Positions 474 to 63,256 of a DNA stretch of 64,000 nucleotides are shown piece after piece (within the stretch, counting starts at the first letter, position 1; each line of letters opens with the position of its first letter). The translations under genes were made by a program, and so were the position numbers. Source of the DNA: Chitinophagaceae bacterium UBA4407 (lineage in GTDB: Bacteria > Bacteroidota > Bacteroidia > Chitinophagales > Chitinophagaceae); the NCBI GenBank assembly GCA_002390845.1, contig DGQT01000050.1:48781-112780 (forward strand), written 5' to 3'. The notes under the pieces are model-generated. The model did not search any database. It was not told the DNA's origin and saw only the letters and a list, made by a program, of their open reading frames with translations.

Positions 474-532
474 GCTCCAGTGTGCGACGCAAGTAAAGTT
501 TCACATTTGTTCATCAGCCGGGCTCAAAAAAT
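474..532 (+). repeat. CPIR short form, R orientation
   Basis: Core GTGCGACGCAA lies at 482-492. The outer arm ..CATCAGCCGGGCTCAAAAAA ends 5 nt before the ridA stop. Confidence 0.8.
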
Positions 533-537
533 ACTTC

Positions 538-924
538 TTAAATATTTATACTCGCAATCATACTGATCTCCACATTCACACCTTTAGGTAAACCCTTTAC
601 AGCAACGGTTTCACGGGCTGGATAATCGCCTTTAAAATAGGTGCCGTACACTTCATTTACTTCGGCGAATAAACTCATATCACTAAGGAATATGGTGGTT
701 TTTACAACATGTTCAAAAGTGAGTTTTGCTTCGCTTAAGATAGCTTCAAGGTTTTGCATGCTCTGGTGGGTTTCTGTTTTAATATCGCCACTTACGATTT
801 CACCGGTTGCAGGATTGATGGGTATTTGTCCGCTGATAAATAACATACCTCCAGCTTTTACACTTTGGTTGTAAGGGCCAATTGGTGCCGGTGCTTTTTC
901 TGTATTAATGATCTGCTTGCTCAT
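538..924 (-). CDS. ridA: RidA (YjgF/YER057c/UK114) family reactive-intermediate deaminase
   Basis: 128 aa with APAPIGPYNQ, FISGQIP, ARETVAV and a family-typical length. Confidence 0.9.
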   Translation of the reverse strand: MSKQIINTEKAPAPIGPYNQSVKAGGMLFISGQIPINPATGEIVSGDIKTETHQSMQNLEAILSEAKLTFEHVVKTTIFLSDMSLFAEVNEVYGTYFKGDYPARETVAVKGLPKGVNVEISMIASINI

Positions 925-967
925 GATTTAATTTTTAGAGCAGCAAATTGCAGTTTTTACTTCAACT

Positions 968-1624
968 ATGCAACCTATTTTTGCAACGCAACAGAATATT
1001 ATGCGGATTGTAGTAAGCGCAACGGAAATTCAAAAAGAAGAATGGCTGCAAAAGCCCATGGCTGCAGGTAATGAACTGGTTTTTATAAACGGGTTAAATA
1101 CAGAAACAGACCACGATAAAGCAGATGTTTTTTTTGATCTTGATTTCAATGAAAACAGCCCCACATTTTTTAAAACAGATAAACCCGTTTTTGTAAATGC
1201 TGTTATTAGTGTGCTTGATGAACTTCCTTCAAACTATATCCGCATAAATGCATGGAGTGGTTTTCTTAAAAGGGATATTACTGAAGTAGCTGCGGCTGAA
1301 ATAAATAAGCCATTTGTAGCTTTAGTTATGCAGGCATTGAACTGTAAATATATTCTTGCACCCGATGAGCCGGGTATGATTGCTGCAAGAACCATTAGTA
1401 TGATTATTAACGAAGCTTATTTTGCTTTAGGCGATGAAGTAAGTACCAAAGCAGAAATTGATATTGCTATGAAGCTGGGCACAAATTATCCTTATGGCCC
1501 TTTTGAATGGAGCGAAAAAATCGGTCTTGAAAAAATTTATTTTCTGCTGAAAAAGTTATCAGAAAAGAATGAACGTTATGCCATAGCGCCTTTGTTGCAG
1601 GAAGAAGCACTTAAAAAAATATAA
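968..1624 (+). CDS. 3-hydroxyacyl-CoA dehydrogenase family protein (C-terminal domain conserved, N-terminal Rossmann motif not seen)
   Basis: PGMIAARTISMIINEAYFALGDEV..IDIAMKLGTNYPYGPFEW matches the 3HCDH C-terminal domain. No GxGxxG is present. An alternative ATG lies at 1001. Confidence 0.6.
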   Translation: MQPIFATQQNIMRIVVSATEIQKEEWLQKPMAAGNELVFINGLNTETDHDKADVFFDLDFNENSPTFFKTDKPVFVNAVISVLDELPSNYIRINAWSGFLKRDITEVAAAEINKPFVALVMQALNCKYILAPDEPGMIAARTISMIINEAYFALGDEVSTKAEIDIAMKLGTNYPYGPFEWSEKIGLEKIYFLLKKLSEKNERYAIAPLLQEEALKKI

Positions 1625-1634
1625 ACTATAAATT

Positions 1635-2363
1635 TTGCCGCTATTACTTAATATAGACACAGCTACAGAACAGGCAAGCGTTTGCATAAGCAACGCAGAT
1701 AATATGGTGGCTTTAAAAATAAGCAGTGATCAAAAAAATCATGCATCATTTGTTCAAACTGCAATCAGAGCATTGTTTCAGGAAACGGGTTATTCCCTGC
1801 ACGAAACCGATGCTATTGCCGTAACTGCAGGGCCGGGTAGTTATACAGGCTTACGGGTTGGGATTGCTACTGCAAAGGGCTTATGCTACGCTCTGCAAAA
1901 ACCACTTATTCTAATAAATACTTTAGAAGTAATGGCCTTGGCCGGCATTGAAGAATATAAAGTAAAATTGCCTTTTGCCGATGCGTTAAAGATTTCAGAG
2001 ATGCTCTTCTGCCCGATGATTGATGCCCGCCGTATGGAAGTATTTACAGCATTATATAGCGAAGCGTTGCAGGCCATATCAGAGCCAACTGCAGTAATAC
2101 TTGATGAAAACAGCTTTAAAGAAAACCTTAGCAGCAACTCAATTTTATTTAGCGGAAGTGGCAGCTTTAAATTAAAAAATATCATTAGCCATCCCGGTGC
2201 TTTTTTTTCAAATGTACAACATCATGCCGGCCACCTTGCAATGCTTGCTTCAACGGCTTTTGAACAAAAAAAGTTTGCAGATATTGCTTATAGCGAACCT
2301 GCGTACCTCAAAGAATTTTTTACAGTAAAGCAACCGGTTCCACACACCAAAAATTTGTCATAA
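1635..2363 (+). CDS. tsaB: tRNA t6A37 biosynthesis protein TsaB (YeaZ)
   Basis: LLNIDTATE start and AVTAGPGSYTGLRVGIATAKGL motif. TTG start, with no nearby ATG. Confidence 0.85.
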   Translation: MPLLLNIDTATEQASVCISNADNMVALKISSDQKNHASFVQTAIRALFQETGYSLHETDAIAVTAGPGSYTGLRVGIATAKGLCYALQKPLILINTLEVMALAGIEEYKVKLPFADALKISEMLFCPMIDARRMEVFTALYSEALQAISEPTAVILDENSFKENLSSNSILFSGSGSFKLKNIISHPGAFFSNVQHHAGHLAMLASTAFEQKKFADIAYSEPAYLKEFFTVKQPVPHTKNLS

Positions 2364-2805: not shown

Positions 2806-2903
2806 ACATTTAGTTAGGATGTTTGCACAGTGCCGAAGAAAGAACAGAACGCTGAAGTGTGCGACGCAACTGGGTTTTATAGTAGCAATGCAGTTGGGTT
2901 CAC
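2806..2903 (+). repeat. CPIR short form, R orientation, divergent outer arm; left member of a ~95-nt inverted pair
   Basis: Core lies at 2859-2869. The outer arm is TGGGTTTTATAGTAGCAATGCAGTTGGGTTC. By eye about 80 percent identical to the reverse complement of 4038-4135. Confidence 0.8.
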
Positions 2904-2950
2904 AATTGAATTTGTACTCCAAATATTGCCTCTTTCAATATCCCGGAATT

Positions 2951-3994: not shown

Positions 3995-4037
3995 TCACTT
4001 TTTTTAATTAGAGCAACATTAGTAAGGGTATTTTTTA

Positions 4038-4135
4038 TGAACCAGACTGCATTGCTACTATAAAACCTTGTTGCGTCGCACTCTTCGGGGCTTTGTTCGC
4101 TCTTCAGCTTAGTGCAGTCAACATTACTAAACAAT
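4038..4135 (-). repeat. CPIR short form, L orientation; right member of the ~95-nt inverted pair
   Basis: Core TTGCGTCGCAC lies at 4071-4081. The outer arm GAACCAGACTGCATTGCTACTATAAAACC mirrors 2870-2903. Confidence 0.8.
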
Positions 4136-4640: not shown

Positions 4641-4683
4641 CTTTTATATTTTAAGAAGGCATTATTTTGCTGAATAATGTAAT

Positions 4684-4841
4684 GCTGTACAAGTGTGCGA
4701 TCCCGAAATAATCCTGAATCAAGTTCAGGACGGGACGGGCTGCCACGCTTCGCTTAAATGTTGCCATGAAAAGGGAACTTAGAACCGAGCGTGGCAAGAA
4801 AAGCTTCATTAATATTCTACAGCCGGGCTCATGATTAAAAA
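4684..4841 (+). repeat. CPIR long form, R orientation
   Basis: GTACAAGTGTGCGA is followed by an insert, then CAAGAAAAGCTTCATT..AGCCGGGCTC. The insert reads TCCCG..TCCTGAA/TTCAGGA..CGGGA, GCCACGCTTCGCTTAAATGTTGCCATGAAA..GAGCGTGG. Confidence 0.85.
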
Positions 4842-6274: not shown

Positions 6275-6320
6275 AGAGAGCGGGGATCTGGTTTCATAGT
6301 AGTAATACAGTTGGGCTATT
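6275..6320 (+). repeat. degenerate CPIR fragment (outer arm only), R orientation
   Basis: GGTTTCATAGTAGTAATACAGTTGGGCT resembles the outer arm at 2870-2903. The core has decayed to GAGCGGGGATC. Confidence 0.45.
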
Positions 6321-6453
6321 AATATAATTTACGCACTAAATGTTGTTGCTGTTAATAAAGCATCGTGGAAAAGAAAGCAAAAAGGAAACAGTATGAACAA
6401 TTCAGATTGGAAATGAGGCGTTAATTTCCGGAAACACAAAACAGACAAAGGGT

Positions 6454-8277: not shown

Positions 8278-8284
8278 AGCCATT

Positions 8285-8398
8285 TTTATTAGCCGGGCCA
8301 GAGAATTACTATGAAGCTTCACTTGCCACGCTCGTTTCACAGTTCCTCTTTCATGGCAACATTTAAGCGAAGTGTTGCAACCTGTCTTCACGCACCTT
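8285..8398 (-). repeat. CPIR long form, L orientation, inner end truncated or decayed
   Basis: AGCCGGGCC..ATGAAGCTTCACTTGCCACGCTCGTTTCACAGTTCCTCTTTCATGGCAACATTTAAGCGAAGTGTTGCAA. Degenerate fragments continue to about 8500. Confidence 0.75.
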
Positions 8399-8504
8399 TA
8401 TCATGTTTTATTCCGGTGCCTCAAAACACGAACCCGGGCTTGGAATTAGAATGCAGTCTGCCCGCAACCCTTGCTCATTGAAAATATTTTGTACAAATTA
8501 AAAA

Positions 8505-8813: not shown

Positions 8814-9042
8814 TTTGCTTTTAGTGTTAAGAATTTGCCTCACTGTTTATTTATCGGAAATTTAAAACTTGTTTTTTATGGTTAACCGGCAATTGAAAAT
8901 ACCAAAGTTTCTATAATCTTTTTACATATTATTTTTTGCCGTTGGTGGTCTGTACTTAGCAGCAATTCGCTCCAATCTACGCATCTGTAAAAGCTCATTT
9001 ATAATCAGAACGTACAGGTACGCTGCCGCACAGGGTTATAGT

Positions 9043-9103
9043 GTTCAAATGTGCGACGCAACAGCAGCTTAATCTGTGTTTCAAAAGCCTGGCTCAAAAA
9101 AAT
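9043..9103 (+). repeat. CPIR short form, R orientation
   Basis: Core lies at 9051-9061. Outer arm CAGCAGCTTAATC..GCCTGGCTCAAAAAAA. Confidence 0.8.
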
Positions 9104-9104
9104 A

Positions 9105-9148
9105 ATCAAAAAAAAGGCCGTTTCAAATTTATGTTTGAAGCGGCCTTT
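9105..9148 (-). terminator. rho-independent terminator of the PUL lipoprotein gene
   Basis: On the minus strand, AAGGCCGCTTCAAA..TTTGAAACGGCCTT is followed by a T-run. Confidence 0.7.
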
Positions 9149-11721: not shown

Positions 11722-11948
11722 CTGTTTTTTTGCTTAGCTGCATTGCTGCTATTTGGCTTCTGTTGTGTCACTCACTTGTGCAATTAGTCCGGAAGTCGGC
11801 AAGACCGATAGTCCGAAAGATGATTATTGTTAACCGATTGTCTTTCTGACTTACCGACTTTCTGACTTTGCTGACTTGTACTCAACTTTACAAGAGTGCG
11901 ACGCAACGGAAGCTTCATAGCATTACAATTGTTTGGTTCAAAAAAAAT
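11722..11948. mobile_element. compact CPIR doublet (L + R, inner arms facing) between susC and susD
   Basis: The L core is the variant TTGTGTCACTCAC at 11763-11775; the R core is GTGCGACGCAA at 11896-11906. The centre holds an internal inverted repeat, AGTCCGGAAGTCGGCAAG / CTTACCGACTTTCTGACT. Confidence 0.8.
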
Positions 11949-11969
11949 CTCTCTAAAAATTTTAAGCAG

Positions 11970-15182: not shown

Positions 15183-15396
15183 AATGTTGTTTTTTTTACG
15201 TTATAAATTGAGCCTTTGGCTAACTTGGAAAAGCGGCCATCCTCGTTATATATATATTCAAATTGACAGTTCTTAAACGCACAATGCTTCAAAATCAACC
15301 GGCTTAAAAACCGAAGCATGAAGAAATATGATTGAAGCATGGAAATTGAAACCCAGATTTATAACGCTACTTTGCGCCTTATAGAAATGAGCATAG

Positions 15397-15456
15397 TTTT
15401 TTTGAGCCGGGCTATATTACTACTATTGAACTTTTGTTGCGTCGCACACTTATACA
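15397..15456 (-). repeat. CPIR short form, L orientation
   Basis: TTTTTTTGAGCCGGGC outer arm; core lies at 15437-15447. Confidence 0.8.
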
Positions 15457-15607
15457 ACAACAATTCTATGAAGCAATAAAGTGCAGTGTCGCTGAGAATG
15501 CGGTTCTGCTAATCCAGGCTGCTGCCTTTTATTCATTTTCGAAAAATTATTCTCAAAACTTGTAAAGCTCTTAGAGGAAATCCTTTACCTTAACCCAAAT
15601 ATTATTT

Positions 15608-16238: not shown

Positions 16239-16279
16239 AAACTGCCTGCATTTTTTACCATTGAGAATGCAGGCAGTTT
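16239..16279. terminator. hairpin between convergent genes (possible bidirectional terminator)
   Basis: 14-bp stem AAACTGCCTGCATT / AATGCAGGCAGTTT. The T tail is weak. Confidence 0.45.
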
Positions 16280-16292
16280 GCTGAACAGAATT

Positions 16293-16357
16293 ACCGAACG
16301 TAAAAGAGTGCGACGCAACAAAGCTTCATACATGTTCTACTGCATGGCACAAAAAAA
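16293..16357 (+). repeat. CPIR short form, R orientation
   Basis: Core lies at 16308-16318. The outer arm AAGCTTCATAC..GCATGGCACAAAAAAA ends at the stop codon of the AI-2E gene. Confidence 0.8.
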
Positions 16358-17458
16358 TTATAATGGCTTTTTTTCTTTTTTTGCAGTCCCTAAAAAGGGT
16401 TGCATGTATGATGGTACCAACTGCCGTGGCTTACTGCGTTTTGAAGCAATTGGTACCTGGTATTCCAGGTAATAAATTTTAAGCAGTATAATAAAAAATG
16501 ATATGAGCACCGGCCCGAATATCAACCCGATAAACCCGAAATATTTAAGGCCCATAATTACACCGAGGACTGTTACAATTGGGTGCACGTCGGCCATACG
16601 TTTTGCAAGCATAAAACGTATTACATTATCAATACTACCCATTAGTAAAGCCGCCCATGCGAGCAGGAAAAAGCCCTGCCAGTTGTGGCCATTCATAAAA
16701 TGTAAAAGTACAATGGGCACCCAAACGATGCCACTGCCCACGATGGGTATAATTGAACAAAAGCCTGTGATCACTGCCCAGAACCCCGCTTCGTTAACGC
16801 CTGTAATTGAATAAGCGATATAACCGAGCAGGCCCTGCGCAATTGCAATAAGTGGTATACCTACAGCATTGCTGAAAGTTTGCGCTACCAGTTCATCGCC
16901 AAACATTTTTATTTTATCGCGTTTAAATGGCAGGTATAAAATAATAGACGCTTCCATACGGTTAATGTTTTGTATCATAAAATACAAAAAGAAATACAGC
17001 ATAAGAATGGTGGAAAAAAAGCCTAACCCCTGGTTAACAATACCCGATAATAATGTGGTTGCGTAAGTTTTTATAGAAGCTAAATTTTCGTCTGTTATAA
17101 GTTCGAAACCTGTTTTCTCTTTTATTAAAGCGCCAAAGTTTTTAATGGAGTCAATAATGTCTGTAGGATTGGAAGCTACATGACTCACCTTGTTAAAAAC
17201 CAATGTTACCAATATGGTTATCGGCAGCAGTATAATAAAAAAAGAAATAATGATTACCAGTAAAGCAGCAGTACTTTTTTTCCATCTCTTCTTTTTTATA
17301 AGCCATTCAGTAAAAGGCTTGCTGAGGATATAAAAAATGATTGCCGAAAGAAATGCCGTAAAAAACTGGCCCAGGCTGTAGAGTAAAAAAAAGCCAAACA
17401 CTAAAATTATGGCAAGAAAAAAGTATCGGTTAACTTTATGATCTTTATTTGGTTCCAT
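16358..17458 (-). CDS. AI-2E family transporter (PerM/UPF0118)
   Basis: 366 aa with about 8 TM segments and the family-typical C-terminal half (VGIPLIAIAQG..IPIVGSGIVWVP). Confidence 0.85.
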   Translation of the reverse strand: MEPNKDHKVNRYFFLAIILVFGFFLLYSLGQFFTAFLSAIIFYILSKPFTEWLIKKKRWKKSTAALLVIIISFFIILLPITILVTLVFNKVSHVASNPTDIIDSIKNFGALIKEKTGFELITDENLASIKTYATTLLSGIVNQGLGFFSTILMLYFFLYFMIQNINRMEASIILYLPFKRDKIKMFGDELVAQTFSNAVGIPLIAIAQGLLGYIAYSITGVNEAGFWAVITGFCSIIPIVGSGIVWVPIVLLHFMNGHNWQGFFLLAWAALLMGSIDNVIRFMLAKRMADVHPIVTVLGVIMGLKYFGFIGLIFGPVLISFFIILLKIYYLEYQVPIASKRSKPRQLVPSYMQPFLGTAKKEKKPL

Positions 17459-17531: not shown

Positions 17532-17783
17532 ATGAGTAGTCAAAAATTTGTAGCTGGTTTAATTCTGGGTGCGGCAGCAGGCGCAGCAGTTGCTTTGTTT
17601 TTGCAAACAGATAAAGGAAAAGAAATACTTTCCAATATAAAAGATGCCGCCAGCGATGCAGGTAATAATCTTAAAACAACAGTTCAGGATTTTGATGAAG
17701 AACTGAATGCATTAATAAAAAAAGGAAAACAGTTTGTAGAAGACCTTGAGAGCAGGGTAAAAGATACATCGTCAACTGTATAG
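17532..17783 (+). CDS. YtxH domain-containing protein
   Basis: 83 aa. N-terminal GLILGAAAGAAVALF helix followed by a charged coiled region. Confidence 0.75.
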   Translation: MSSQKFVAGLILGAAAGAAVALFLQTDKGKEILSNIKDAASDAGNNLKTTVQDFDEELNALIKKGKQFVEDLESRVKDTSSTV

Positions 17784-17785
17784 TA

Positions 17786-17845
17786 TTTTTTTGTACCCGG
17801 CAATTGCACTGGTGGCAGCATTGTTGCGTCGCACACTTGTACACT
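17786..17845 (-). repeat. CPIR short form, L orientation
   Basis: TTTTTTTGTACCCGGC outer arm starts 3 nt after the ytxH stop. Core lies at 17824-17834. Confidence 0.8.
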
Positions 17846-17951
17846 AAAAGTTATATCAGCTTTAGGTTTCATGTAAAAGAACCTGATTAAGTAAAGATAG
17901 CTTGCGGGTTTTAGTTGTTATAGAAAAGCTGTAAAAATAAAATAATAAAAA

Positions 17952-18681: not shown

Positions 18682-18777
18682 ATAGCAGGGAAGACTTTTT
18701 GCAATACTTAATAACAAAATACAAGTACAACAAATGTGTTCGCTGTATTTCGCTTTGCTCAATATAGCTCCGGCAGT

Positions 18778-18912
18778 TGAAGGGTGCGATCCCGAAATGA
18801 ATTTGGGACAGGCTGTCACGCTACGCTTAAATGTCGCCATGAAAGGGGAACTGTGAAACGAGCGTGGCAACGGAACTTTAATGTATGTTCAAATGCCTGG
18901 TTCATAAAAAAT
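18778..18912 (+). repeat. CPIR long form, R orientation
   Basis: GGGTGCGATCCCGAAATGAATTTGGGACAGGCTGTCACGCTACGCTTAAATGTCGCCATGAAAGGGGAACTGTGAAACGAGCGTGGCAAC..GCCTGGTTCATAAAAAA. Confidence 0.85.
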
Positions 18913-19024
18913 ACTGCACATTTTATGCGGTACACATCATAATATATAAAGCAACTTATTTAAATCACCTTTTCTGCGGTTTAAAAAAATTCTATATAAA
19001 TCATTAAAGATTACGGGCTGGATA

Positions 19025-22000: not shown

Positions 22001-24007
22001 TTCAGTATTCATACACTTACTTCTTTTGCTGAGCAGGATTCTTTGTTTATGGATGGCATTATTGACGGCACCGCAATAGTAAAAAATGCAACTGCCAATC
22101 CGGTTTTTACTTCTGATCTCCATATCAAAAACTTTACGTATAAAAAAGATACTGTAGGTAATATTTCAGTAAAAGTTGACAACGAAACAGCCAATGCTTT
22201 TAATGCAAATGTAAAAATCGAAGGCAATGGAAACGATGTGCAGTTAGCCGGAAAATATTACACAGGCGAAAGTAAAATGGACCTTCAGTTAAATATTGGC
22301 AGTTTAAATCTTGCTACAGTAAAACCTTTTGCATCAACACAATTAAAGGATGCAGGTGGTAATTTAAAAGGTAATATCACTATTGCAGGAACCCTTGATA
22401 AACCCGCCGTAAACGGCAATGTTCATTTTGAAAATTCGTTTATTGTACCAACAGTTTTAGGCGAACGCTTTACACTTCCAAATGAAAAAATTGCAATAAG
22501 TTCTCAAGGAATCAACTTTAATAAATTTACGTTGGTAGATTCTGCCGGCAACAAAGCCATCATCAATGGTGATGTACTTACAACCGATTTTAAAAATTAT
22601 AAATTTGCTATTGATCTTAACGCCGATGATTTTAATCTCATTAATTCCACCCAGGCAGACAATTCATTGTTTTATGGCAAATTCAATACCGATGCAAGGA
22701 TAAAGCTGAGCGGTGATATGCAGGCACCTGTTGTTGATGCAAACATTAGGGTAAACAAATCCACCGCATTCACTTTAATACTGCCAACCGACAATCCTGA
22801 AGTTCAAGAACGGGAAGGTGTAGTAAATTTTATTGATATGGATGCACCGAAAGACACACTCCATAAAATTAATTTTACCGATACACTCATTAATACAGCC
22901 GCACTTGCAGGTATGAATTTATCTGCCATAATTGAAACAGATACCGCCGCACTGTTTACTTTGGTAATTGATGAGCGCACAGGCGATGCACTTAATTTAA
23001 AAGGCAAAGCAGATCTTGCAGCAGGAATTGATGAAAGCGGTAAACTAAGCCTTACCGGCAACTACGAAATTGAAAAAGGTTCTTACCAGTTGTCCTTTAA
23101 TTTTTTAAAAAGAAAATTCGATATACAGAAAGGAAGCGTGATTACCTGGACAGGAGACCCTACTTCTGCAACCGTTGATATAGCTGCATTGTACGAGGTA
23201 AAGGCACCACCTATTGATCTGGTAGAAGCGCAACTCTCCACAGCAGACTTAATCAGGTACAAGCAACGCATTCCCATTCAGGTGTTCCTTAAAATGAAAG
23301 GGGAATTATTAAAACCGCAAATAACATTTGATATCGTTTTACCCGCCAGTGAAGTATCGCAATGGCCGGTAGTTGATGGCAGATTAACGCAATTGCGTAC
23401 CGATGAATCTGAATTAAACAAGCAGGTTTTTGCATTGCTTTTACTCAACCGTTTTGTAGGAGAAGATATTACAAAAAGCGCCGCAGGCAGTACCACTACA
23501 GCCACCCTGGTAAGGCAAAGTGTTAGCAGCATCCTTGCCGATCAACTGAATAAAATTGCCGGCAGTTTAATAAAAGGTGTTGATATAAATTTTGGCATCA
23601 ATTCGGAAGATGATTATACAACAGGGGCTCAGCAAACACGCACCGATCTTACCGTTGGAGTGTCAAAATCCCTGCTGAACGACCGCATTAAAGTTAGTGT
23701 TGGCAGCAACTTTGCATTAGAAGGTACAACCAATACAAACCAGGCCGCATCTACCATTGCAGGCGATGTGTCGGTTGATTACCAGGTAAGTAAAGATGGC
23801 CGCTACATGCTGCGTGCTTACCGTAAAAATAATTACGAAGGTGTAATAGAAGGCCAGGTAATTGAAACAGGTTTAACCTTCATTTTTACATTGGAATACG
23901 ATCAGTTAAAAGAATTGTTTAAAAAGAAAGACCAGGCTTTAAAAGAAGACAGGAAAAAAGAAAAGCAGGAACATAAGCAAGAGAAACAGGCAAGTGAAAA
24001 TAATTAG
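19025..24007 (+). CDS. tamB: translocation and assembly module protein TamB (AsmA-like, C-terminal DUF490)
   Basis: 1660 aa with an N-terminal TM anchor, long beta-rich repeats, and a C-terminal TamB-type domain (..DLTVGVSKSLLNDRIKVSVGSNF..MLRAYRKNNYEG). An Omp85 gene follows. The start is uncertain: TTG at 19025, and the frame is open from 18950. Confidence 0.85.
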   Translation: MAGIIFLLVLVLILIQVPAVQNFAKNKAVSYLQDKIKTKVEIGKLSIDFPKQIVLEKVYFEDQQKDTLLAGEKIRLDISLFKLLSNTVEVNYVSLDGIRANIYRKGTDTSFNFDYIIKAFVSEEKKQVVKDTTAGMKFKIAKIELNKILATYKDDVTGNDVYFYLGKFETRIDKFDPEHAEYAIPAISVADITARIKQYKPLIEPKTPLQVEAESNKPVQTKLDLGTLNLKNINLNYTNDISVLSAQLNLGELITEFGKMDLAKLFIPLKKLQLNNTLLKVVMGKSAASAVAAKEIEKHAAAQANNPWQIAMNNVSFSNNEIQFDNNNNNPVAKTGMDYSHLHIKDLMVNADSLNFTPAIYKGNIQQIAFNEKSGFNLQKLQTNFFYSDKETKLQNLLLQTDKTVLRDHILLQYPSISTIADKPGEIFIDANLNQCKLAVKDILTFAPMLAANLKGNEQAIFALNGSAKGFVKDIAIPNFELSGLGSTAVQLAGNIKGLPDAKNAWYNLQLTKFVTTKKDIENLAPRNSIPSTIRIPERLSAKGFFKGTMKDLTAKLSTQTTNGNADITGSISNSGKSYTAKILLNKLDLGYLLKQEDNLGKISLEANANGSGFDYKTMTATLHAKLLEGEIKKYTYKNLYLDASVAKGNAVVESSIKDPYISYLLKATADLKNKYPAVQMNLQLDTLNLLALHLLADSLQLSGILNADFANTDPDALQGNLKIYNLALNSNNKNISTDTITLVAANSKDSGVRINLHAEMADIDLNGDYKLTEVAKALQHTINRYYNIPGFKDTLFTAQQWQMNVHLRPSAVVLQLMPELKGTDTIGAKISFNSEQNNLDLSITAPKIQYGEQAIEQLSVTASSDDKQLNYKLNVNKAGSKSVQLYKTSLTGSVANNILNTSLLVKDKKETNRYQFAATLKQVSSGIRFALKPDSLLLDYEKWQVSNDNFLQYDSTGIIANNFLLSNKDQSLRINSATTYTQAPLEVAFKNFSIHTLTSFAEQDSLFMDGIIDGTAIVKNATANPVFTSDLHIKNFTYKKDTVGNISVKVDNETANAFNANVKIEGNGNDVQLAGKYYTGESKMDLQLNIGSLNLATVKPFASTQLKDAGGNLKGNITIAGTLDKPAVNGNVHFENSFIVPTVLGERFTLPNEKIAISSQGINFNKFTLVDSAGNKAIINGDVLTTDFKNYKFAIDLNADDFNLINSTQADNSLFYGKFNTDARIKLSGDMQAPVVDANIRVNKSTAFTLILPTDNPEVQEREGVVNFIDMDAPKDTLHKINFTDTLINTAALAGMNLSAIIETDTAALFTLVIDERTGDALNLKGKADLAAGIDESGKLSLTGNYEIEKGSYQLSFNFLKRKFDIQKGSVITWTGDPTSATVDIAALYEVKAPPIDLVEAQLSTADLIRYKQRIPIQVFLKMKGELLKPQITFDIVLPASEVSQWPVVDGRLTQLRTDESELNKQVFALLLLNRFVGEDITKSAAGSTTTATLVRQSVSSILADQLNKIAGSLIKGVDINFGINSEDDYTTGAQQTRTDLTVGVSKSLLNDRIKVSVGSNFALEGTTNTNQAASTIAGDVSVDYQVSKDGRYMLRAYRKNNYEGVIEGQVIETGLTFIFTLEYDQLKELFKKKDQALKEDRKKEKQEHKQEKQASENN

Positions 24008-24012
24008 GAATT

Positions 24013-24282: not shown

Positions 24283-24297
24283 TTATTAAATTAAGGA

Positions 24298-26627: not shown

Positions 26628-26700
26628 GATTAGCCGGGCATTGGTAATGCAATGAAGCTTCTGTTGTGTCACTCACTTGTGCGTTCGGATTATTACTGAA
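26628..26700 (-). repeat. CPIR variant-core copy, L orientation
   Basis: TTAGCCGGGCATTGGTAATGCAATGAAGCTTCTG, then the variant core TTGTGTCACTCAC at 26664-26676, then the inner arm CTTGTGCGTTCGGATTATTACTGAA. Confidence 0.8.
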
Positions 26701-36413: not shown

Positions 36414-36496
36414 TGTATTTATAAATTATTGCAGTAAAAAATAGTTGGCAATTTTAAAATGATTTGTAAATTGAAGAAAATTAAAACGATTGCACT

Positions 36497-39792: not shown

Positions 39793-40021
39793 ATTTTGTA
39801 CCCGGCATTGGATATTTCATGGCATCTTCTCTTGCGTCGCACACTTGTGCTTTGGGAACAGCTATGAGCTTTTAGCTAAGAGCTTTTGTTTTTTGCTCAT
39901 AGCCCGAAGCTCATGGCTCGTTGCTTGTGGCTTGTTGCTTCCTGTTACGAACGTACCAGTGTGCGACGCAACAAAAGCTTCGCAAAGTATCTGCTGATGG
40001 GCTTAAAAAAACAGATTGCAA
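39793..40021. mobile_element. compact CPIR doublet upstream of infA
   Basis: L core lies at 39832-39842 and R core at 39961-39971. The centre is made of short reiterated words (GCTATGAGCTTTTAGCTAAGAGCTTTT / GCTCATAGCCCGAAGCTCATGGCTCG). Confidence 0.85.
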
Positions 40022-42313: not shown

Positions 42314-42371
42314 TGAGCCTGACCCCGGAAGGGAGTTGCGGAATTGCAGTAGCTGATTAATGAACTCAATG

Positions 42372-42433
42372 ATGAAAGGATTGCAACGCAACAGGCGATG
42401 CTACAAAGTACAAAAGCTGGTATCTCAATAAAT
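42372..42433 (+). repeat. degenerate CPIR copy (R orientation) between rpsD and rpoA
   Basis: ATTGCAACGCAACAGGCGATGCTACAAAG..GCTGG..CAATAAAT aligns with the copy at 31650-31704. Confidence 0.5.
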
Positions 42434-44211: not shown

Positions 44212-44220
44212 TTGTATAAA

Positions 44221-44300
44221 TTTTTTGTACCCAACTTAGGTTTTTATGGCATCGTCTGTTGCGTCGCGCTCTTGTACGTTCTTATCAGTATTGAGCAAAT
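44221..44300 (-). repeat. CPIR short form, L orientation (core variant TTGCGTCGCGC)
   Basis: TTTTTTGTACCCAAC..TTATGGCATCGTCTG; core lies at 44259-44269; inner arm CTTGTACGTTCTTATCAGTATTGAGCAA. Confidence 0.75.
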
Positions 44301-44429
44301 AATGCAGCAACCAGATTGAATTAAAGCCTTTAAAAACTTAATAACTTTTCAGAAAATCAGTGTGCGAAAATTTATGCTGAAAATTAAAAATGATATTCTT
44401 TTTTTGCACTCGAAAACTATTAAATAAAA

Positions 44430-45530: not shown

Positions 45531-45550
45531 ACTCAAATAAAAGAAATACA

Positions 45551-45720
45551 TTTTGAGCCGGGCTGAGGAAGAAGTATTAAGCTTTTGTTGCGTCGCACAC
45601 TTTTTCAGTTGATTCTCTGGTCAACAGTTGACTGTTTACTGTCGACCGATGTTCTAAACGTACAAGTGAGTGACACAACGGAAGATGAAAAAAGATATAT
45701 CGCAAGGTTCAAAAAAAAAT
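45551..45720. mobile_element. compact CPIR doublet between carA and yigZ
   Basis: L core lies at 45588-45598. The R core is the variant GTGAGTGACACAAC at 45666-45679. The centre is only about 65 nt. Confidence 0.85.
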
Positions 45721-45737
45721 TATTGAACCTTGCTTTT

Positions 45738-48741: not shown

Positions 48742-48828
48742 TAAATTCGCTTTGCTCAAAATGTTATGTTGTACAAGAGTGCGACGCAACTAAAGCTTCA
48801 TAGAATTTCCTTAGCCCGGCCAAAAAAT
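48742..48828 (+). repeat. CPIR short form, R orientation, inside the exbB-exbD intergenic region
   Basis: Inner arm TTCGCTTTGCTCAAAATGTTATGTTGTACAAGA; core lies at 48779-48789; outer arm CTAAAGCTTCATAGAATTTCCTTAGCCCGGCCAAAAAA. Confidence 0.85.
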
Positions 48829-48838
48829 TTACTTGCAA

Positions 48839-49531: not shown

Positions 49532-49646
49532 GCTCTTTGTTTATGATTTTTGCTAAAGTATGCTTAAACACAAAACAACGGATATGCTGTGCATAAATTA
49601 TGATGCAATGTGCTTTTTGTGAAACATTTTGCAAACTATAACAGCC

Positions 49647-49931
49647 ATTTTGAGCCGGGCAGATGTATTTTAATTTGGCGTTCCTTGCGTCGCACATTTC
49701 CTCTGAAGGAACAATAACCGGCAAAGCGAAGATGGCAACATCGGTGTGACTGCTCAAAGCCGTCTGACCGTTATCCTTCATGTGCCTGTGTGTGCCTATG
49801 GTTCATGATTGATTGTACTGTTGGTTCTTCGTCGACCGTTGACCGTCGACTGTCGAATGCTGTTCCGAACGTACAAGTGAGTGACACAACAGGCGATAAA
49901 AAGCATTCCTGTAGCTGGTTACAAAATATTT
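49647..49931. mobile_element. compact CPIR doublet between exbB and the M61 peptidase gene
   Basis: L core lies at 49685-49695. The R core is the variant GTGAGTGACACAAC at 49877-49890. The outer arm ends at the M61 stop codon. Confidence 0.85.
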
Positions 49932-51797
49932 TCAGGATTGTGGCTTCAGCCATTGATCTCTTAATAAACGTTGCTGCTGATCTGCATTTTTATCAAACGT
50001 AAGTGTATTGTATTTCTTAATTGGATACTTTGTCATTTTTCCTTTCAGTTCAACCTGAGCTTCATTTCCCGATGCATCTTTGCGCATTACTTTCACAATA
50101 AAATCATCACCAGGATTTGAAGTCTTTCCAAAATCAGTAAAGAACTTGTTAGCGTTGGCGCCTGTAATTTCTTCACCATTAACAGCAATAATTTCATCAT
50201 TTTTCTGGTAGCCCATTTGCCTGCCCAATTCATTCATGCTTGTTACATCGTTTATGATCAGCCTTCCCGTTGCCGGGTTAAAACCAATACCTACTTTACC
50301 CATTGAAAACATACTGTCTTTTGTTTCAACTTCTTTTTGAAAATTTACGCCAACAATCCTAAATACATCTTCAAGTGGCAAAGGTTGGTTACCAGCAACA
50401 TAAGTATCTAAAAACTGTTTTATCTCAGGGTAAGTAAACTTTTCAATTTCACCAAACAACTCATCGTCTTTAAAGCCTTTTTGCTTGCCGTATTTGTTTG
50501 AAAGATCATGAATTAAGTTCATTATGCCGTATTTGCCGTTGGATAACTGTAGCAGTTTTATATCCAGGCACATATTAATCAATGCCCCTTTCTGGTAAAC
50601 ATTGCCAAACTGGTTTTTATAAGTACCCAATGTTCTGCTGCTCATTACTGTGAACGGAACGGTATCGTTGTATCTTGTTCTTGAATTGGTAATTTTTCCA
50701 CCTAACCTTTTAAGTAGGTCTTCAGGTGTTATCAACCCATATTTTTCCTGTACCATGTTGGCGTGATACTCTGTTGAGCCTTCGTACAACCAAAGATGTT
50801 GCGACATTCTTGGGCTGTTAAAATCAAAGAATTGTATTTCTTCTGAATGTATTGTAAGCGGTGTGATAATATGAAAAAACTCATGCGCCGCATGATCGGT
50901 AAATTCTACCGACATTTCCTCTGCTGATCTTTCAGGGTAGTAATACATAGAGCAATAAGAATGTTCCAATGCACCCTCACCATCGGAATAGCCGGGCTTA
51001 TCGTTAAAGTACACAAGAAACGCATATTTATCAACGGGTAATTTACCACCAAGGTATTTTCCCTGCGCCTGTAAAAGTGTATCTAATTTTTTTGCAAGAA
51101 ATTTCGAAGTAATTTGTTTTGTTGGCGAATACACGCTGATCAAAACATCTGTTGCACCAATCTTTATAATAGTGGTGTCCGGCGCATCGTACATAAAAGG
51201 ATTGTCAACGATCCTGTTATAAGATTCTGTAGTAAACCTGTCGTTTGTATCGCTGTTATCAAGATCAGTTAAAGCAGTACTGCCATATATATTCGATGGA
51301 TGCTTAATATTAATTTCATAAGTAACATTTTTCATATCGTCGAAATAACCAAGAAAGCAATGGTTGTTGATTACATAGTTGGTATCCTTCTGAATGTTGC
51401 TGCCTGCTGGTTCAAAGATCACCTGTTTTGTGGTGGAATCATCGTAAGAATCATTCACCAGGTAAGAGAGTCTGTATAATTTATCAGCATCAGCAATACT
51501 CCAACTGTTCACATCAATTTTAACAACAGTAAGCGCATTCCCCTTTTTATCAAAAGCCTGAAACTGCTCAATATAACGGCCGTAATCATCTTCAGAATAA
51601 GTGCCGGGAACAATCTTCGGAATATGATACGTAATAGTAGCTTGTTTAATTTTCGGCACAAGCAGCTCTATTTTTACTTTATCATCACTCACATTTACGA
51701 GGTCAATCATAAACTTATACTGGTTTGTTTTCTTTGCAAAAGAAGAAAAACAAAAAATGGTTAACACCATTACTGCCAAAGAGATTTTCCTGAACAT
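49932..51797 (-). CDS. M61-family metallopeptidase with C-terminal PDZ domain
   Basis: Signal peptide, HEFFH zinc motif with a downstream E, and a PDZ-like C-terminus (NDEIIAVNGEEI). Confidence 0.8.
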   Translation of the reverse strand: MFRKISLAVMVLTIFCFSSFAKKTNQYKFMIDLVNVSDDKVKIELLVPKIKQATITYHIPKIVPGTYSEDDYGRYIEQFQAFDKKGNALTVVKIDVNSWSIADADKLYRLSYLVNDSYDDSTTKQVIFEPAGSNIQKDTNYVINNHCFLGYFDDMKNVTYEINIKHPSNIYGSTALTDLDNSDTNDRFTTESYNRIVDNPFMYDAPDTTIIKIGATDVLISVYSPTKQITSKFLAKKLDTLLQAQGKYLGGKLPVDKYAFLVYFNDKPGYSDGEGALEHSYCSMYYYPERSAEEMSVEFTDHAAHEFFHIITPLTIHSEEIQFFDFNSPRMSQHLWLYEGSTEYHANMVQEKYGLITPEDLLKRLGGKITNSRTRYNDTVPFTVMSSRTLGTYKNQFGNVYQKGALINMCLDIKLLQLSNGKYGIMNLIHDLSNKYGKQKGFKDDELFGEIEKFTYPEIKQFLDTYVAGNQPLPLEDVFRIVGVNFQKEVETKDSMFSMGKVGIGFNPATGRLIINDVTSMNELGRQMGYQKNDEIIAVNGEEITGANANKFFTDFGKTSNPGDDFIVKVMRKDASGNEAQVELKGKMTKYPIKKYNTLTFDKNADQQQRLLRDQWLKPQS

Positions 51798-51893
51798 ATT
51801 ACACGTTTATTTGAAGCCGCAATTAAATAAATTCATTATTCACAAAAGCATATTTTTGGATGAGTAACACACAGCAAATGATTAAAGGCAATT

Positions 51894-52152
51894 ATGAACC
51901 AGGCTTTTAATTTATAATGAGGCTTTACTTGCCACGCCCGGTTCAGGGTTCTGTTTTCATGGCGACATTTAAGCGAAGTGTAGCAGCTAAATAAGCACCT
52001 ATTACTAATAGGGCCTTTCTATAATACCACTTAAACATTTAATGCATTCGATTTAATAATGCGGCTGCACAGTGCTGCATAGCATTACAACAGTACAAGT
52101 GAGTGACACAACCAAAGCTTAATAGTAGCAGCATAGTTTAGTACAAAAAAGT
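51894..52152. mobile_element. CPIR doublet: long-form L half plus variant-core R half
   Basis: The L half is ..AATGAGGCTTTACTTGCCACGCCCGGTTCAGGGTTCTGTTTTCATGGCGACATTTAAGCGAAGTGTAGCAGC. The R variant core lies at 52099-52112. Confidence 0.75.
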
Positions 52153-52168
52153 AATAGTTTTTCCGGTT

Positions 52169-53921: not shown

Positions 53922-54097
53922 AGTAATTTTTTTTTATTAATAATTTTTGCATGAAAGTATACCTGTAGTTATGCTCACTGCAAATGCAATTATTAAATGG
54001 CAACAGTTAGTGAGTAAACGGTATGGCATAAATGAGCTTTAGGGTTTATTTTTGATCAGTAGAAAATTGAATGTGAAGCCATTTATTAAAGAAATAA

Positions 54098-54160
54098 TTT
54101 TTTGTACCGGGCAGTGTGGTTATCAAATCAGCATTCTTGCGTCGCACACTTGTACTGCAA
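54098..54160 (-). repeat. CPIR short form, L orientation
   Basis: TTTTTTGTACCGGGC outer arm; core lies at 54137-54147. Confidence 0.8.
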
Positions 54161-54255
54161 CAATTCTTTTGAACAGTTCAGGTGCAGCTACGCTTACATT
54201 TTGCAGGGCTGGCATTCATTAACATTATTCAGCAATAAAGCCAACAGTATCTATC

Positions 54256-56529: not shown

Positions 56530-56587
56530 TTGTAAATTATTTCATACAAACTTAACAATAAGATAATATTGTCAATGTTAAGTTTTG

Positions 56588-56716
56588 TTTTTTTGAGCCA
56601 GGCATATGAACATATATGAAGCATTGTTGCCACGCTCGTTTCGAGGTTCTGTTTTCATGGCAACATTTAAGCGAAGCGTGGCAGCCCGTCCCGAATTCAT
56701 TTCGGGATTGCACGCT
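56588..56716 (-). repeat. CPIR long form, L orientation
   Basis: TTTTTTTGAGCCAGGC..ATGAAGCATTGTTGCCACGCTCG..CATGGCAACATTTAAGCGAAGCGTGGCAGCCCGTCCCGAATTCATTTCGGGATTGCAC. Confidence 0.88.
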
Positions 56717-56856
56717 TCAGGGGTTTGTTCGCTTATCGGCAAAAAGTGCAGCAGGCTAATTAAATTTAACCGGTTATTTCATCTAATTGGTTTGGGCAAA
56801 TGTGTACATCAATGCCGGGTAAAAACCAGGCAAAAAATGTAAGAAAAAGCTGTATA

Positions 56857-57240: not shown

Positions 57241-57424
57241 TAAAGTAGTACTGTTTACCAGTTAACCAAATGAAAATAGCCTTAATTTTTAATTGGCGGT
57301 GCAGTGTGCGGTGCTGAAACAGGTTTGTGCTGAAATTCTTTGGTATGCAACGCTTCGCTTATACTTTGCACAGGAAAGTTTTGTACATAACACCAAGCAG
57401 CCTGCAAATTGCCCAATAAAGAAT

Positions 57425-57490
57425 AAAACGTATAAGTGAGTGACACAACGGAAGCTTAATAGTAGCAATGGCTTATGGCTAATGATACCT
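57425..57490 (+). repeat. CPIR variant-core copy, R orientation
   Basis: The variant core GTGAGTGACACAAC lies at 57436-57449. The outer arm GGAAGCTTAATAGTAGCAATGGCTTATGGC ends about 7 nt before the TamB-2 stop. Confidence 0.8.
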
Positions 57491-62398: not shown

Positions 62399-62514
62399 TG
62401 AATCCCTTTTATCCGGTAAAAATAAAGATAAAGCGTTAAGGGCGAAACGAATGCCAAAAGCTTGTAAGACTTTGCCAAATTAGCAGTATGTGGTCTGTTT
62501 ACAGCAATAATACA

Positions 62515-62590
62515 ATTTTATACCCGGCAGATTACAATAATTAAACTTTTCTTGCGTCGCACACTTGTACGTTCAGATTATGATTCGGCA
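62515..62590 (-). repeat. CPIR short form, L orientation
   Basis: ATACCCGGCAG outer arm; core lies at 62552-62562; inner arm CTTGTACGTTCAGATTATGATTCGGCA. Confidence 0.85.
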
Positions 62591-62596
62591 GAAGGT

Positions 62597-63103
62597 TCAA
62601 CGTTTAGTGTTGTTGTTGAATACTGTTTCTTTAAAATGAATCCATTGCTCAGCAGTCATTTCAAACTTTACTTCAGTCCACATAGAATGGTCTTTCTTTC
62701 TTGTCTGCGTTTTTCTTTCCACTTCTTTCCATCCGCATATTTTGTAAAATTTTTCAGCCCGGGTATCAGAAGCGGTACCCAGCCAAATAGTATGATCTGT
62801 TTTACTAAAATACCAATCAAGCATAAGATCATGTAATTTTTTGCCAATGCCTTTTCCTTCATACCCGGGCAGTACAAATAATGCCCAAACATCATTACCT
62901 GTTAAATCAACTATTGAAAACCCTACGATCGTATTTCCAGCTTCGCATACCCAGCCCGCCCCCCTGACTGTAATGTAATTTTCACAATCTTTATTTGTAA
63001 CCAAAGCAGGATCGGATAGTGTATTTTCTTTTACAGCATTTCTTACCACCTGTATTTGTGGTATATCGCTTATTTGCGCTTCTCTAAAAATCATTGAAGC
63101 CAT
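62597..63103 (-). CDS. GNAT-family N-acetyltransferase
   Basis: Starts at MASMIFREAQISDI. The acetyl-CoA motif is LFVLPGYEGKGIGKKLH. The upstream part of the ORF-track model runs into the repeat. Confidence 0.85.
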   Translation of the reverse strand: MASMIFREAQISDIPQIQVVRNAVKENTLSDPALVTNKDCENYITVRGAGWVCEAGNTIVGFSIVDLTGNDVWALFVLPGYEGKGIGKKLHDLMLDWYFSKTDHTIWLGTASDTRAEKFYKICGWKEVERKTQTRKKDHSMWTEVKFEMTAEQWIHFKETVFNNNTKR

Positions 63104-63194
63104 TTGTATATTACGTTTGTAGTTGGTTGCAAACTTAAATTGCAAATAAATAAAAATATAGCGGTTCTTTCTTCGCACTGCTGAGTGATTTTCA

Positions 63195-63256
63195 GAAAGC
63201 CCCAGTGTGCGACGCAAGAAAAGCTTAATAGAAATACCTGTGCCTGGTACAAAAAA
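63195..63256 (+). repeat. CPIR short form, R orientation
   Basis: Core lies at 63207-63217. The outer arm GAAAAGCTTAATAGAAATACCTGTGCCTGGTACAAAAAA ends at the stop of the next gene. Confidence 0.85.

Follow-up and report, generated by a model that had tools for sequence, protein, structure and literature searches.

A dispersed intergenic repeat with a palindromic core and inverted neighbours in Chitinophagaceae

Results

The window and the number of copies

The window examined here is a stretch of 64,000 nucleotides (nt) from Chitinophagaceae bacterium UBA4407, and the spaces between its genes carry many copies of a short non-coding repeat, referred to below as the module. The genes include one for an ABC-F protein, the pair exbB and exbD, and two giant TamB-like genes of about 1,650 amino acids (aa) at 19025-24007 and 57497-62398; the first of these is followed by an Omp85/TamA gene, with a doublet of modules between the two. 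The ribosomal alpha operon is also present. A degenerate module (42350-42420) lies inside it, and intact modules (39926-40014 and 44216-44302) bracket the infA-rplQ block.

A first-pass annotation of the window had proposed a single family of non-coding repeats whose core is palindromic and centrally conserved, and both the profile search and the positions of the open reading frames (ORFs) bear this out. The core, taken as 22 nt with up to 3 mismatches, occurs 15 times in the window against 0.00 expected from shuffles, and the 10-mer TTGCGTCGCA occurs 21 times exactly and 29 times with at most 1 mismatch (expected 3.6). These counts are far above chance, and the repeat family is real. An nhmmer profile made from exact window copies recovered 35 of the 37 previously noted positions at E <= 1e-3; the two copies that had been called degenerate gave weak matches (E = 0.74 and 0.024), and each long form (see below) appeared as two partial matches. 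The orientation of the 37 copies, 17 on the plus and 20 on the minus strand, is as first counted, and so is the density of about one copy per 1.7 kilobases (kb), or 0.58/kb. On the other hand, the statement that nearly every intergenic region is filled was too strong, since the ORF list and the profile matches place copies at about 31 of roughly 50 gene boundaries. All 37 window copies lie between long ORFs, and this combination of high copy number with an extragenic position is the criterion applied to repetitive extragenic palindromic (REP) sequences. Twelve assignments of copies to the inside of a gene stem from crude ORF calls, and none of the copies is solidly coding.

Structure of the module and its variants

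An ungapped logo of 210 copies from the window and other genomes, anchored on the core, describes an asymmetric module of about 80 nt whose blocks stand at fixed spacing. A T-run, usually with a final G, occupies positions -39..-33, and a GC box, CCnGGC, follows at -29..-24. After about 15 variable bases there is a weak box, T.AAC.TTyG, at -10..-1, and the 19-mer TTGCGTCGCACACTTGTAC at 0..18 forms the invariant core, the first part of which is a palindrome of 9-11 nt, TGCG-T-CGCA. The positions between the blocks and everything after +19 are near random, and the tail is variable and of low complexity. The inner arm GTTCGGATTATAATTGAGCA, which had been taken for a conserved part, did not stand up: with as many as 3 mismatches allowed, it has only 2 matches, and beyond +19 the logo is flat. 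The information content is highest 30-55 nt inward of the ends and drops to the T-run at the outer end. The inner-side tails and spacers consist of short-period, low-complexity runs (AGTCGGCAAG.., GTCAACAGTTGAC.., CATTCA..), as at 11805-11865, 45607-45655 and 39880-39925 in the window and at many other loci.

Six window copies carry a variant core, TTGTGTCACTCACTTGTAC, in which GCG/CGC is replaced by GTG/CAC with the symmetry kept; the same variant is found in other genera. A second subfamily has only the palindrome in common with the main family and reads ...TTCATGGCATCaTCG TTGCGTCGCAA TCCnTTCATC. Its example in the window is the degenerate copy between rpsD and rpoA (42350..42420, minus strand, TTGCGTTGCAATCCTTTCATC, E=0.024). 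In this full-palindrome TTGCGTCGCAA subfamily (loci L017, L021, L027, L036, L039 and L046 in addition to window 42350-42420), TGGCAT-N5-TTGC stands directly 5' of the core, which is the -24/-12 spacing of sigma-54 promoters; the main family does not have it.

A nested insert at the centre of the palindrome

In seven window copies, the long forms, a segment of 76-95 nt, CACGCTCG...TTTCGGGA, replaces the central G of the palindrome. The junction changes from TTGC[G]TCGCA to TTGC[CACGC...CGGGA]TCGCA and is always at the palindrome centre; the long forms noted in the first-pass annotation are real, and the segment can be placed exactly within the palindrome. On the minus strand they lie at 4662..4832 and 18750..18913, both recognized from split nhmmer matches (the former also from its sequence), and at 27838..28014, where the insert is 88 nt long (27881-27968). 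On the plus strand they lie at 8279..8400 (3' half decayed; outer arm E=1e-6, and alignment), 30240..30400 (a variant of the insert; outer arm E=1.9e-4), 51884..51990 (truncated; E=7.6e-6) and 56586..56746.

Two contigs of a 95%-identical strain, L115 and L223, cover 19 modules. By nhmmer and strain comparison, this strain has the plain core TTGCGTCGCAC at the positions of 27838..28014 (L115) and 56586..56746 (L223), with arms otherwise about 95% identical, and 30240-30400 (in L115) and 51884-51990 are long forms in both strains. The insert comes and goes independently of the module, as a second, nested element entering at the palindrome centre. The flanks common to the insert sites are only about 10-13 nt long, which disfavours ordinary homologous conversion; the insert may move by a site-specific enzyme or by conversion between copies. 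The insert folds into 2-3 hairpins, and a whole long module reaches z = -4.9 relative to shuffled controls; in an alignment of the long forms, the stems show decay, not compensation. The insert has no match in Rfam, where a long form gave only chance-level matches in E-value mode, and a search of 112 loci of other genomes and of viral contigs did not find it.

Two other length differences were seen near modules. In Limnovirga soli, the orthologue of the module upstream of ABC-F (L116:9760-9860) has about 38 nt of unrelated sequence in the place of the palindrome, perhaps through another insertion at this central point. Beside window position ~27805, between the long-form module and a PfkB gene, the related strain carries about 247 nt of inserted sequence without a counterpart in the window (L115:6964-7210); it contains internal inverted repeats (e.g. 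CCCCGATGCAGATCGGGG) and may be another small mobile element.

Inverted neighbours and tight doublets

Adjacent copies are mostly inverted relative to each other: 113 neighbouring pairs alternate in orientation and 22 share it (P = 3e-16), and with the window excluded the figures are 83 and 18 (P = 2e-11). All 47 neighbour pairs less than 1 kb apart are inverted. When the gap is under 150 nt, the order is plus-minus in 29 of 29 pairs, with the inner arms facing (head-to-head); at 150-1000 nt, 13 pairs face each other, 5 are back-to-back and 0 have the same orientation. At longer distances the share of pairs in the same orientation is 11% for gaps of 1-2 kb, 19% for 2-3 kb and 40% over 3 kb, the last being not different from 50%.

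The tight pairs are imperfect palindromes spanning 165-295 base pairs (bp), bounded on the outside by a T-run at one end and an A-run at the other. Of the 29, ten combine a canonical core (GCGTCGC) with a variant core (GTGTCAC), and none combines two variant cores. The strict polarity of the tight pairs suggests that the doublet is a structural unit, as in REPINs, BIMEs and ERIC.

Tight doublets in the window, each with its left half on the plus and its right half on the minus strand, are formed by 11723..11803 (variant core TTGTGTCACT, E=4.2e-5) and 11866..11952 (canonical core, E=3.1e-17); by the canonical copies 24003..24096 (E=6.5e-22) and 24194..24287 (E=3.4e-15) between TamB and Omp85; by 39785..39878 (E=6.4e-18) and 39926..40014 (E=9.2e-17); and by 45540..45633 (canonical, E=9.8e-20) and 45631..45724 (variant core, E=5.8e-9). 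Further doublets of the same polarity are 49638..49731 (E=7.9e-17) with 49843..49932 (variant core, E=2.3e-9), and the truncated long form 51884..51990 with 52063..52158 (variant core, E=4.1e-9). The spacer of the 45588/45666 doublet cannot be aligned between the 95%-identical strains, and the modules flanking it are conserved. The doublet 11723..11952 folds as a long imperfect hairpin with z = -4.65, and another doublet does not (z = -0.5).

The genes enclosed by wider facing pairs in the window are those for acylphosphatase, GNAT, DUF6958, 3-keto-disaccharide hydrolase, PfkB and SH3/BON proteins, and elsewhere PGK, TrpG, IlvH, HisB, RdgB and others. A transposon with cargo was considered and rejected: the genes between facing copies are housekeeping genes, and the similarity of partner copies does not clearly exceed that of random pairs, except for 2859/4070.

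A strain-variable islet occupies window 33961-34967 (up to 36305), between the facing modules 33837+ and 36363-. Its gene 33977-34855 has no Pfam match; L115 has a 238-aa ORF in its place, and L203 an Imm44 immunity protein. In L203, 35585-36305 is missing as well, and a ParD/ParE toxin-antitoxin pair (35028-35571) lies beside the islet.

Position relative to genes, and tests for RNA, promoter and terminator

Stop codons pile up at -45..-36 from the core with a sharp limit at -35, and many genes end with TAA followed directly by TTTTTTTG.., that is, by the T-run of a module. The opposite end of the module is typically 90-130 nt from the next gene and runs into short-period, low-complexity sequence that is strongly different even between the 95%-identical strains. 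In tandem gene contexts, by crude gene calls, 62 copies are co-oriented and 65 anti-oriented with respect to the genes; 28 further copies are in convergent and 22 in divergent contexts. There is no orientation bias to transcription.

These data bear on two explanations at the RNA level. That the module is a structured non-coding RNA family or a cis-regulatory RNA (riboswitch or leader) would fit the folding of the long form well below its shuffled controls, and also the change from GCG/CGC to GTG/CAC, which keeps the symmetry of the core. However, RNAalifold applied to 131 copies gave no consensus structure on either strand (-0.3 and -0.4 kcal/mol), single-sequence folds were mutually inconsistent, and the comparison with Rfam that the first-pass annotation had proposed returned 0 matches at gathering thresholds for the whole window. 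In addition, a palindrome around a single central base cannot make a hairpin loop, the copies show no polarity to transcription, and the stems of the long forms decay without compensation. With heterogeneous folds, no RNAalifold structure and a negative Rfam search, the structured RNA was rejected; it is already largely refuted and barely credible.

The second explanation takes the module as a portable promoter or small-RNA gene, in which the TTTG of the T-run would be the -33 element combined with a -7-like box, or in which a sigma-54 or extracytoplasmic function (ECF) promoter would have the 19-mer as its transcript start. In fact, the TTTG at the end of the T-run does match the -33 motif, and in compact tandem genes the module sits at a promoter-like place. 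Yet the logo has TATTnAAC or TATGAAGC at 19-21 nt from TTTG, and not the TAnnTTTG expected at that spacing for Bacteroidota sigma-A. The TGGCAT-N5-TTGC of one subfamily has the sigma-54 spacing, and only this subfamily does; the main family has an N6 spacing and no GG dinucleotide, which is a misfit. The distance from AAC to CGTC is 8 nt, against 16-17 for ECF promoters. Anti-oriented copies are as common as co-oriented ones (65 and 62), with 28 more directed into the ends of convergent genes. The module does not include the conserved ABC-F promoter (TAGTTTTG), which is situated between it and the start codon, and no conserved RNA structure accompanies the copies. As a general explanation the promoter was rejected on the random orientation and on a by-eye comparison, in which the logo is unlike Bacteroidota -33/-7, sigma-54 and ECF promoters, and we regard it as very unlikely. 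The block upstream of ABC-F (window 33700-33790) is conserved in seven genomes and holds TAGTTTTG, a canonical Bacteroidota -7 box.

An intrinsic terminator was also tried and rejected for want of a systematic link: a hairpin with the T-run as its U-tract is present in about 11% of copies, and about 10% have a terminator downstream. The order within a doublet (T-run, stem, A-run) is the reverse of that in a bidirectional terminator, which speaks against the terminator as well. A report on dCas12f/sigma-E RNA-guided transcription (PMC13472631) is not about this repeat.

Taxonomic spread and associated genes

The exact 19-mer was found in more than 112 stretches, almost all of them from Chitinophagaceae, and in at least 12 genera (Segetibacter, Flavisolibacter, Limnovirga, Ferruginibacter, Hydrotalea, Paracnuella, Puia, Flavihumibacter, Ilyomonas, Terrimonas, Niastella and others). 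The copies are neither confined to the window nor assembly artefacts, since the same copies occur in independent assemblies of related strains and the family occurs in this large number of stretches from many genomes. The sequence immediately 5' of the core carries a signature that differs from genome to genome. The ABC-F protein of the window shares 87% identity with its counterpart in Limnovirga soli and 84% with the one in Panacibacter ginsenosidivorans, and the profile has 7 matches in Limnovirga and 9 in Panacibacter (22 kb). Among unselected relatives, by contrast, 80 metagenome loci around ABC-F homologues (67-86% identity) contain 8 matches in 848 kb, or 0.009/kb. The density is patchy across lineages, with a copy number varying like that of a mobile family.

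The 19-mer is also present in 18 IMG/VR stretches, with 36 modules in 158 kb. One of them, L216:1-11034 (IMGVR_UViG_3300006805_000180), is a genuine myovirus-like structural cluster (portal, head/protease, tail sheath, tape-measure) with 3 modules between late genes in the order -,+,-. Nothing similar was found in curated plasmids and phages, a blastn search with a doublet against 5,426 E. coli genomes gave no match and hence no similarity to ERIC or other E. coli repeats, and a literature search for the core sequence returned no relevant paper. The family is uncatalogued as far as can be judged from Rfam, the curated collections of plasmids, phages and E. coli genomes, and the literature. Two contigs (L067 and L106) in proteobacterial metagenome-assembled genomes, labelled Bosea thiooxidans and Methylophilus rhizosphaerae, carry the Chitinophagaceae 19-mer, most likely through a binning error, so that the 19-mer is a possible contamination marker.

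The first-pass annotation had reported that no transposase, RAYT-type enzyme or recombinase gene lies in the window, and Pfam and the gene tables agree. Clustering of 298 ORFs beside copies at 112 loci found no recurrent protein family. This is relevant to the possibility that the module is a classical REP/REPIN, kept by a single-copy RAYT (a Y1 HUH transposase) that is encoded elsewhere in the genome and flanked by copies. REPIN-RAYT systems are long-lived and vertically inherited, and the module resembles REPs in being extragenic and abundant and in having a CGTC tetranucleotide in its core. The presence of head-to-head and absence of head-to-tail dimers is as reported for REPs by Di Nocera et al. 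2013 (PMC3733652), and the dimers of two types resemble the BIME heterodimers of the same paper. On the other hand, the 5-13-bp stem-loop of REPs is missing: the palindrome measures 4+1+4 (up to 5+1+5) nt, and there is no conserved fold. The CGTC lies inside the palindrome (+3..+6) and not as an unpaired tag beside a stem; it is not followed by a stem, and a CCA tail is missing. The module is asymmetric and about 80 nt long against 20-40 nt for a REP, and no RAYT was found in the 64 kb or among the 298 ORFs. A RAYT-kept REP is therefore quite improbable. The earlier proposal of a REP/REPIN-type repeat rather than a MITE (miniature inverted-repeat transposable element) holds in so far as the module is more REP/BIME-like than a classical MITE; it fails for REP/REPIN in the strict sense, given a palindrome of 9-11 nt with a single central base and no conserved hairpin.

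Turnover and constraint at orthologous sites

Comparison of orthologous loci shows turnover between lineages and stability between close strains. In the window, the ABC-F/BON spacer is 242 nt long and holds a module (31622..31708, minus strand, outer subtype ATGGCATCG, E=1.5e-13) just after the ABC-F stop codon; in Limnovirga the same spacer, measured between called genes, is about 70 nt long and free of modules. By this comparison, occupied spacers exceed the empty orthologue in length by about 170-200 nt. In Panacibacter, ABC-F is flanked by modules on either side, with a polarity opposite to that in the window. At the site of window copy 2822-2915, strain L200 has a copy of a different subfamily in the opposite orientation, between flanks that are 93.8% and 99.2% identical to those of the window's contig. 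Derived variants are common to many loci: the window contains 7 long forms and 6 copies with the variant core, and the variant core recurs in other genera. The first-pass annotation had proposed a check for presence/absence polymorphism, and in Limnovirga and L200 occupancy does differ; however, in L115/L223 of the 95%-identical strain, 19 of 19 modules have the same place and orientation, which implies that movement is rare at this time scale.

The longer occupied spacers bear on a further explanation, a DNA uptake signal built up by biased uptake and recombination, like the uptake signal sequences (USS) of Pasteurellaceae and the DNA uptake sequences (DUS) of Neisseriaceae. Such a signal would suit the invariant core with its phased A/T-rich flanks, a density of about one copy per 1.7 kb without preference for either orientation, a family-wide core with a second 'dialect' (GTGTCAC), the presence in phage and the lack of an associated transposase. 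However, USS and DUS occur in coding regions too, and no solid copy of the module does. The additional 170-200 nt of occupied spacers indicate inserted DNA and not point mutations, a 19-nt exact core with its boxes is too long for repeated origin by drift, and head-to-head polarity is not expected. We know of no competence in Chitinophagaceae, and an uptake signal has only a slim chance of being the explanation.

Signs of constraint were found as well. Substitutions between the 95%-identical strains affect 2 of about 220 sites (~0.9%) in the palindrome and GC box and ~5% of the other module positions and flanks, although these numbers are small; with the same small numbers, the -10..-1 box differs at 12% and the CACTTGTAC part of the core at about 7%, so that neither is protected. 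The module upstream of ABC-F (33789..33877, plus strand, pointing away from ABC-F, E=7e-18) has kept its place and orientation in five lineages, and a module between nuoC and nuoD has been kept in three genomes; at both loci the boxes are conserved and the arms randomised.

These observations could mean that the module is not mobile but a cis-element of the host: a composite site for a conserved DNA-binding or nucleoid protein, kept in place by selection, whose inverted pairs would act as boundaries or insulators through looping or as a topological barrier. The low substitution rate of the palindrome and GC box, the copies kept across genera with randomised arms and the 19 stable modules all agree with such a site. 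So do the block-wise conservation at fixed spacing, with block centres roughly whole helical turns apart as read from the logo, the inversion of neighbours up to ~3 kb, the T-run adjoining stop codons with its sharp limit at -35, and the use of the module in a phage late-gene cluster. Nevertheless, the near absence of the module from 848 kb of relatives implies that there is no general requirement for it, and at the same gene both occupancy and polarity differ among Limnovirga, Panacibacter and the window genome. At one site, near-identical strains have oppositely oriented copies of different subfamilies; substitution in the CACTTGTAC half of the core is no slower than at other module positions and in the flanks; and derived variants common to many loci imply copying. 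A purely host-encoded element is unlikely in our view, though it is the main competitor of the mobile reading.

Other copies in the window

The remaining copies are given here. On the minus strand, with a canonical core, they are 445..541 (E=2.8e-19), whose T-run adjoins the stop codon of gene 538-924; 2822..2915 (E=7.9e-16), of the CACTTCAGC subfamily; 9019..9108 (E=8.3e-17); 16273..16362 (E=5e-19) and 63169..63263 (E=5e-22), where the T-run follows the stop codon TAA directly; and 36341..36420 (E=7.2e-17). The same strand carries the module between exbB and exbD (48748..48835, E=1.2e-18), a variant-core copy at 57401..57467 (E=6.8e-6) and a degenerate remnant at 6291..6324 (E=0.74 only). Plus-strand copies with a canonical core are 15390..15481 (E=4.4e-19), 17780..17864 (E=2.2e-15), 54090..54181 (E=1.3e-17) and 62508..62595 (E=7e-19). 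The copy at 4027..4118 (plus strand, E=8.7e-15) belongs to the same subfamily as 2822-2915, with an outer-arm similarity of 0.73 to 2859; the plus strand further carries the variant-core copy 26631..26704 (E=9.3e-11) and the copy 44216..44302 (E=1.4e-12).

Discussion

Based on the results presented above, the reading that we favour, with moderate confidence, is that the module is a dispersed, non-coding, REP/BIME- or ERIC-like intergenic repeat of mobile origin, whose palindrome and GC box have been kept under constraint, probably as a protein-binding site. The family would have multiplied by transposition, and occasionally would still turn over, as non-autonomous DNA, with an enzyme encoded away from the copies acting in trans and recognising the palindromic core. 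Its natural unit would be the head-to-head pair with inner arms facing, often with one canonical and one variant core. After insertion, the palindrome and GC box would stay under constraint while the rest of the module drifts, and the simplest reason for this constraint would be the binding of a protein to duplex DNA. The second, nested element of 76-95 nt enters at the centre of the palindrome. The spread across genera, the inverted neighbours with head-to-head tight pairs, the abutment on stop codons and the separately polymorphic insert were missed by the first-pass annotation.

Several results weigh against a mobile origin. No direct repeat that could be a target-site duplication was found around 17 tight doublets, whose exact ends are not fixed. 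No empty site from a close relative gives the exact boundaries of the element, the 95%-identical contigs show no whole-module insertion or deletion and have all 19 modules in place, and the divergence between the spacers of the window and Limnovirga prevents their alignment. Within one genome, the arms of the copies are almost random, and recent amplification would look otherwise; the outer ends are the least conserved parts, and terminal repeats bound by a transposase usually show the opposite. The lack of a transposase, RAYT or recombinase in the window and of a recurrent gene beside the copies counts in the same direction, and the ordinary housekeeping genes between facing copies imply that gene-enclosing pairs are not transposon cargo. 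Finally, the inverted-neighbour rule at the kb scale is not explained by the insertion of doublets alone. This rule could reflect the loss of close direct repeats by deletion, or it could reflect a function that needs inverted pairs.

The latter possibility leads to a tentative and rather improbable alternative, in which modules in inverted pairs are boundary elements of transcription units, and the inverted rule (near-absolute below ~1 kb, random by 3 kb) is a functional signature and not a by-product of copying. Possibly, a protein on the palindrome and GC box synapses two opposed sites and loops out the block of genes between them, giving micro-domain insulation; another possibility is that read-through transcripts spanning two copies pair into a long-range duplex, which is cut. 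The same punctuation would have been taken up by the phages of these hosts. If the inverted-neighbour rule proves functional, the finding will have much greater weight.

The repeat matters for annotation. It makes up a large share of the intergenic DNA, at roughly one copy per 2 kb, in a family widespread in soil, freshwater and activated sludge, and gene callers, promoter and terminator predictors and screens for non-coding RNA will misread it. The invariant 19-mer is usable for strain typing, in the manner of ERIC-PCR, or as a marker in the binning of Chitinophagaceae contigs. The inverted-neighbour rule, the exact abutment on stop codons and the insert at the palindrome centre make function and mechanism testable in cultured strains such as Limnovirga soli KCS-6 and Panacibacter ginsenosidivorans.

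Comparison with known repeat systems

Of the known systems, USS and DUS share with the module its density, orientation symmetry, family-wide core with dialects and phased A/T-rich flanks; the module differs in that its copies are never coding, add DNA to the intergenic region and have a polar head-to-head arrangement. The Correia elements, which are MITEs of Neisseria, resemble it as dense, small, intergenic inverted-repeat elements that are genus- or family-wide, occur in prophage regions and differ in occupancy between close strains (PMC3184786). In contrast to the Correia elements, with 26-bp terminal inverted repeats, a TA duplication, functional promoters and an IHF site, the module has no terminal repeats, no duplications and no promoter match. 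More generally, a MITE has terminal inverted repeats and is best conserved at its termini, whereas the halves of a module doublet are inverted copies with internal conservation.

The CGTC-tagged REPs (Di Nocera et al. 2013, PMC3733652) are similar to the module in having CGTC, in that no dedicated transposase was found for them, in being reported in Bacteroidetes and in the predominance of head-to-head dimers. Membership in that group was rejected: the defining combination of CGTC, an 8-9-bp stem, a 4-5-nt loop and a CCA tail (PMC3733652) is missing altogether in the module. According to PMC3733652 and PMC2817692, the REP/BIME sequences of Enterobacteriaceae and Pseudomonas, including REPIN doublets, are abundant, strictly extragenic and either single or in inverted pairs, with head-to-head dimers dominant, head-to-tail dimers absent, dimers of two types and alternating orientation, and in all of this the module is like them. 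IS621, IS1397 and ISKpn1 insert into REPs (cited in PMC3184786). In REP and module alike, the palindromic unit is itself a target for other insertions. Compared to REP/BIME, the module is without stem-loop and without an unpaired GTAG/CGTC tag, is an asymmetric unit of ~80 nt instead of 20-40 nt, has no RAYT that could be found and shows no similarity in E. coli genomes. Its inverted-neighbour rule crosses genes to 2-3 kb, which to our knowledge is not known for REPs. The missing hairpin points to a mobilising or binding protein different from that of REPs.

ERIC sequences offer another parallel. Longer forms of ERIC were reportedly described by Wilson & Sharp in 2006 as arising by insertion at a fixed internal site, a likeness to the nested insert of the module. 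Like the module, ERIC is family-wide and found in many genera, is an imperfect palindrome of 100-300 bp between genes, varies in copy number with lineage and is most conserved in its centre (PMC3184786). ERIC differs in its terminal inverted repeats, target duplications and flanking TA (PMC3184786), none of which was seen in the module. Module halves, moreover, are each centred on the invariant 19-mer and often of two types, many single halves exist, and there is no sequence similarity to ERIC. The defining features of a strict REP, a CGTC-REP, a MITE, ERIC or Correia element and a USS thus do not place the module in any of these groups; it works most like BIME or ERIC, and it widens the REP/BIME/ERIC class to Bacteroidota by a form without the hairpin that is thought to be central to REP recognition.

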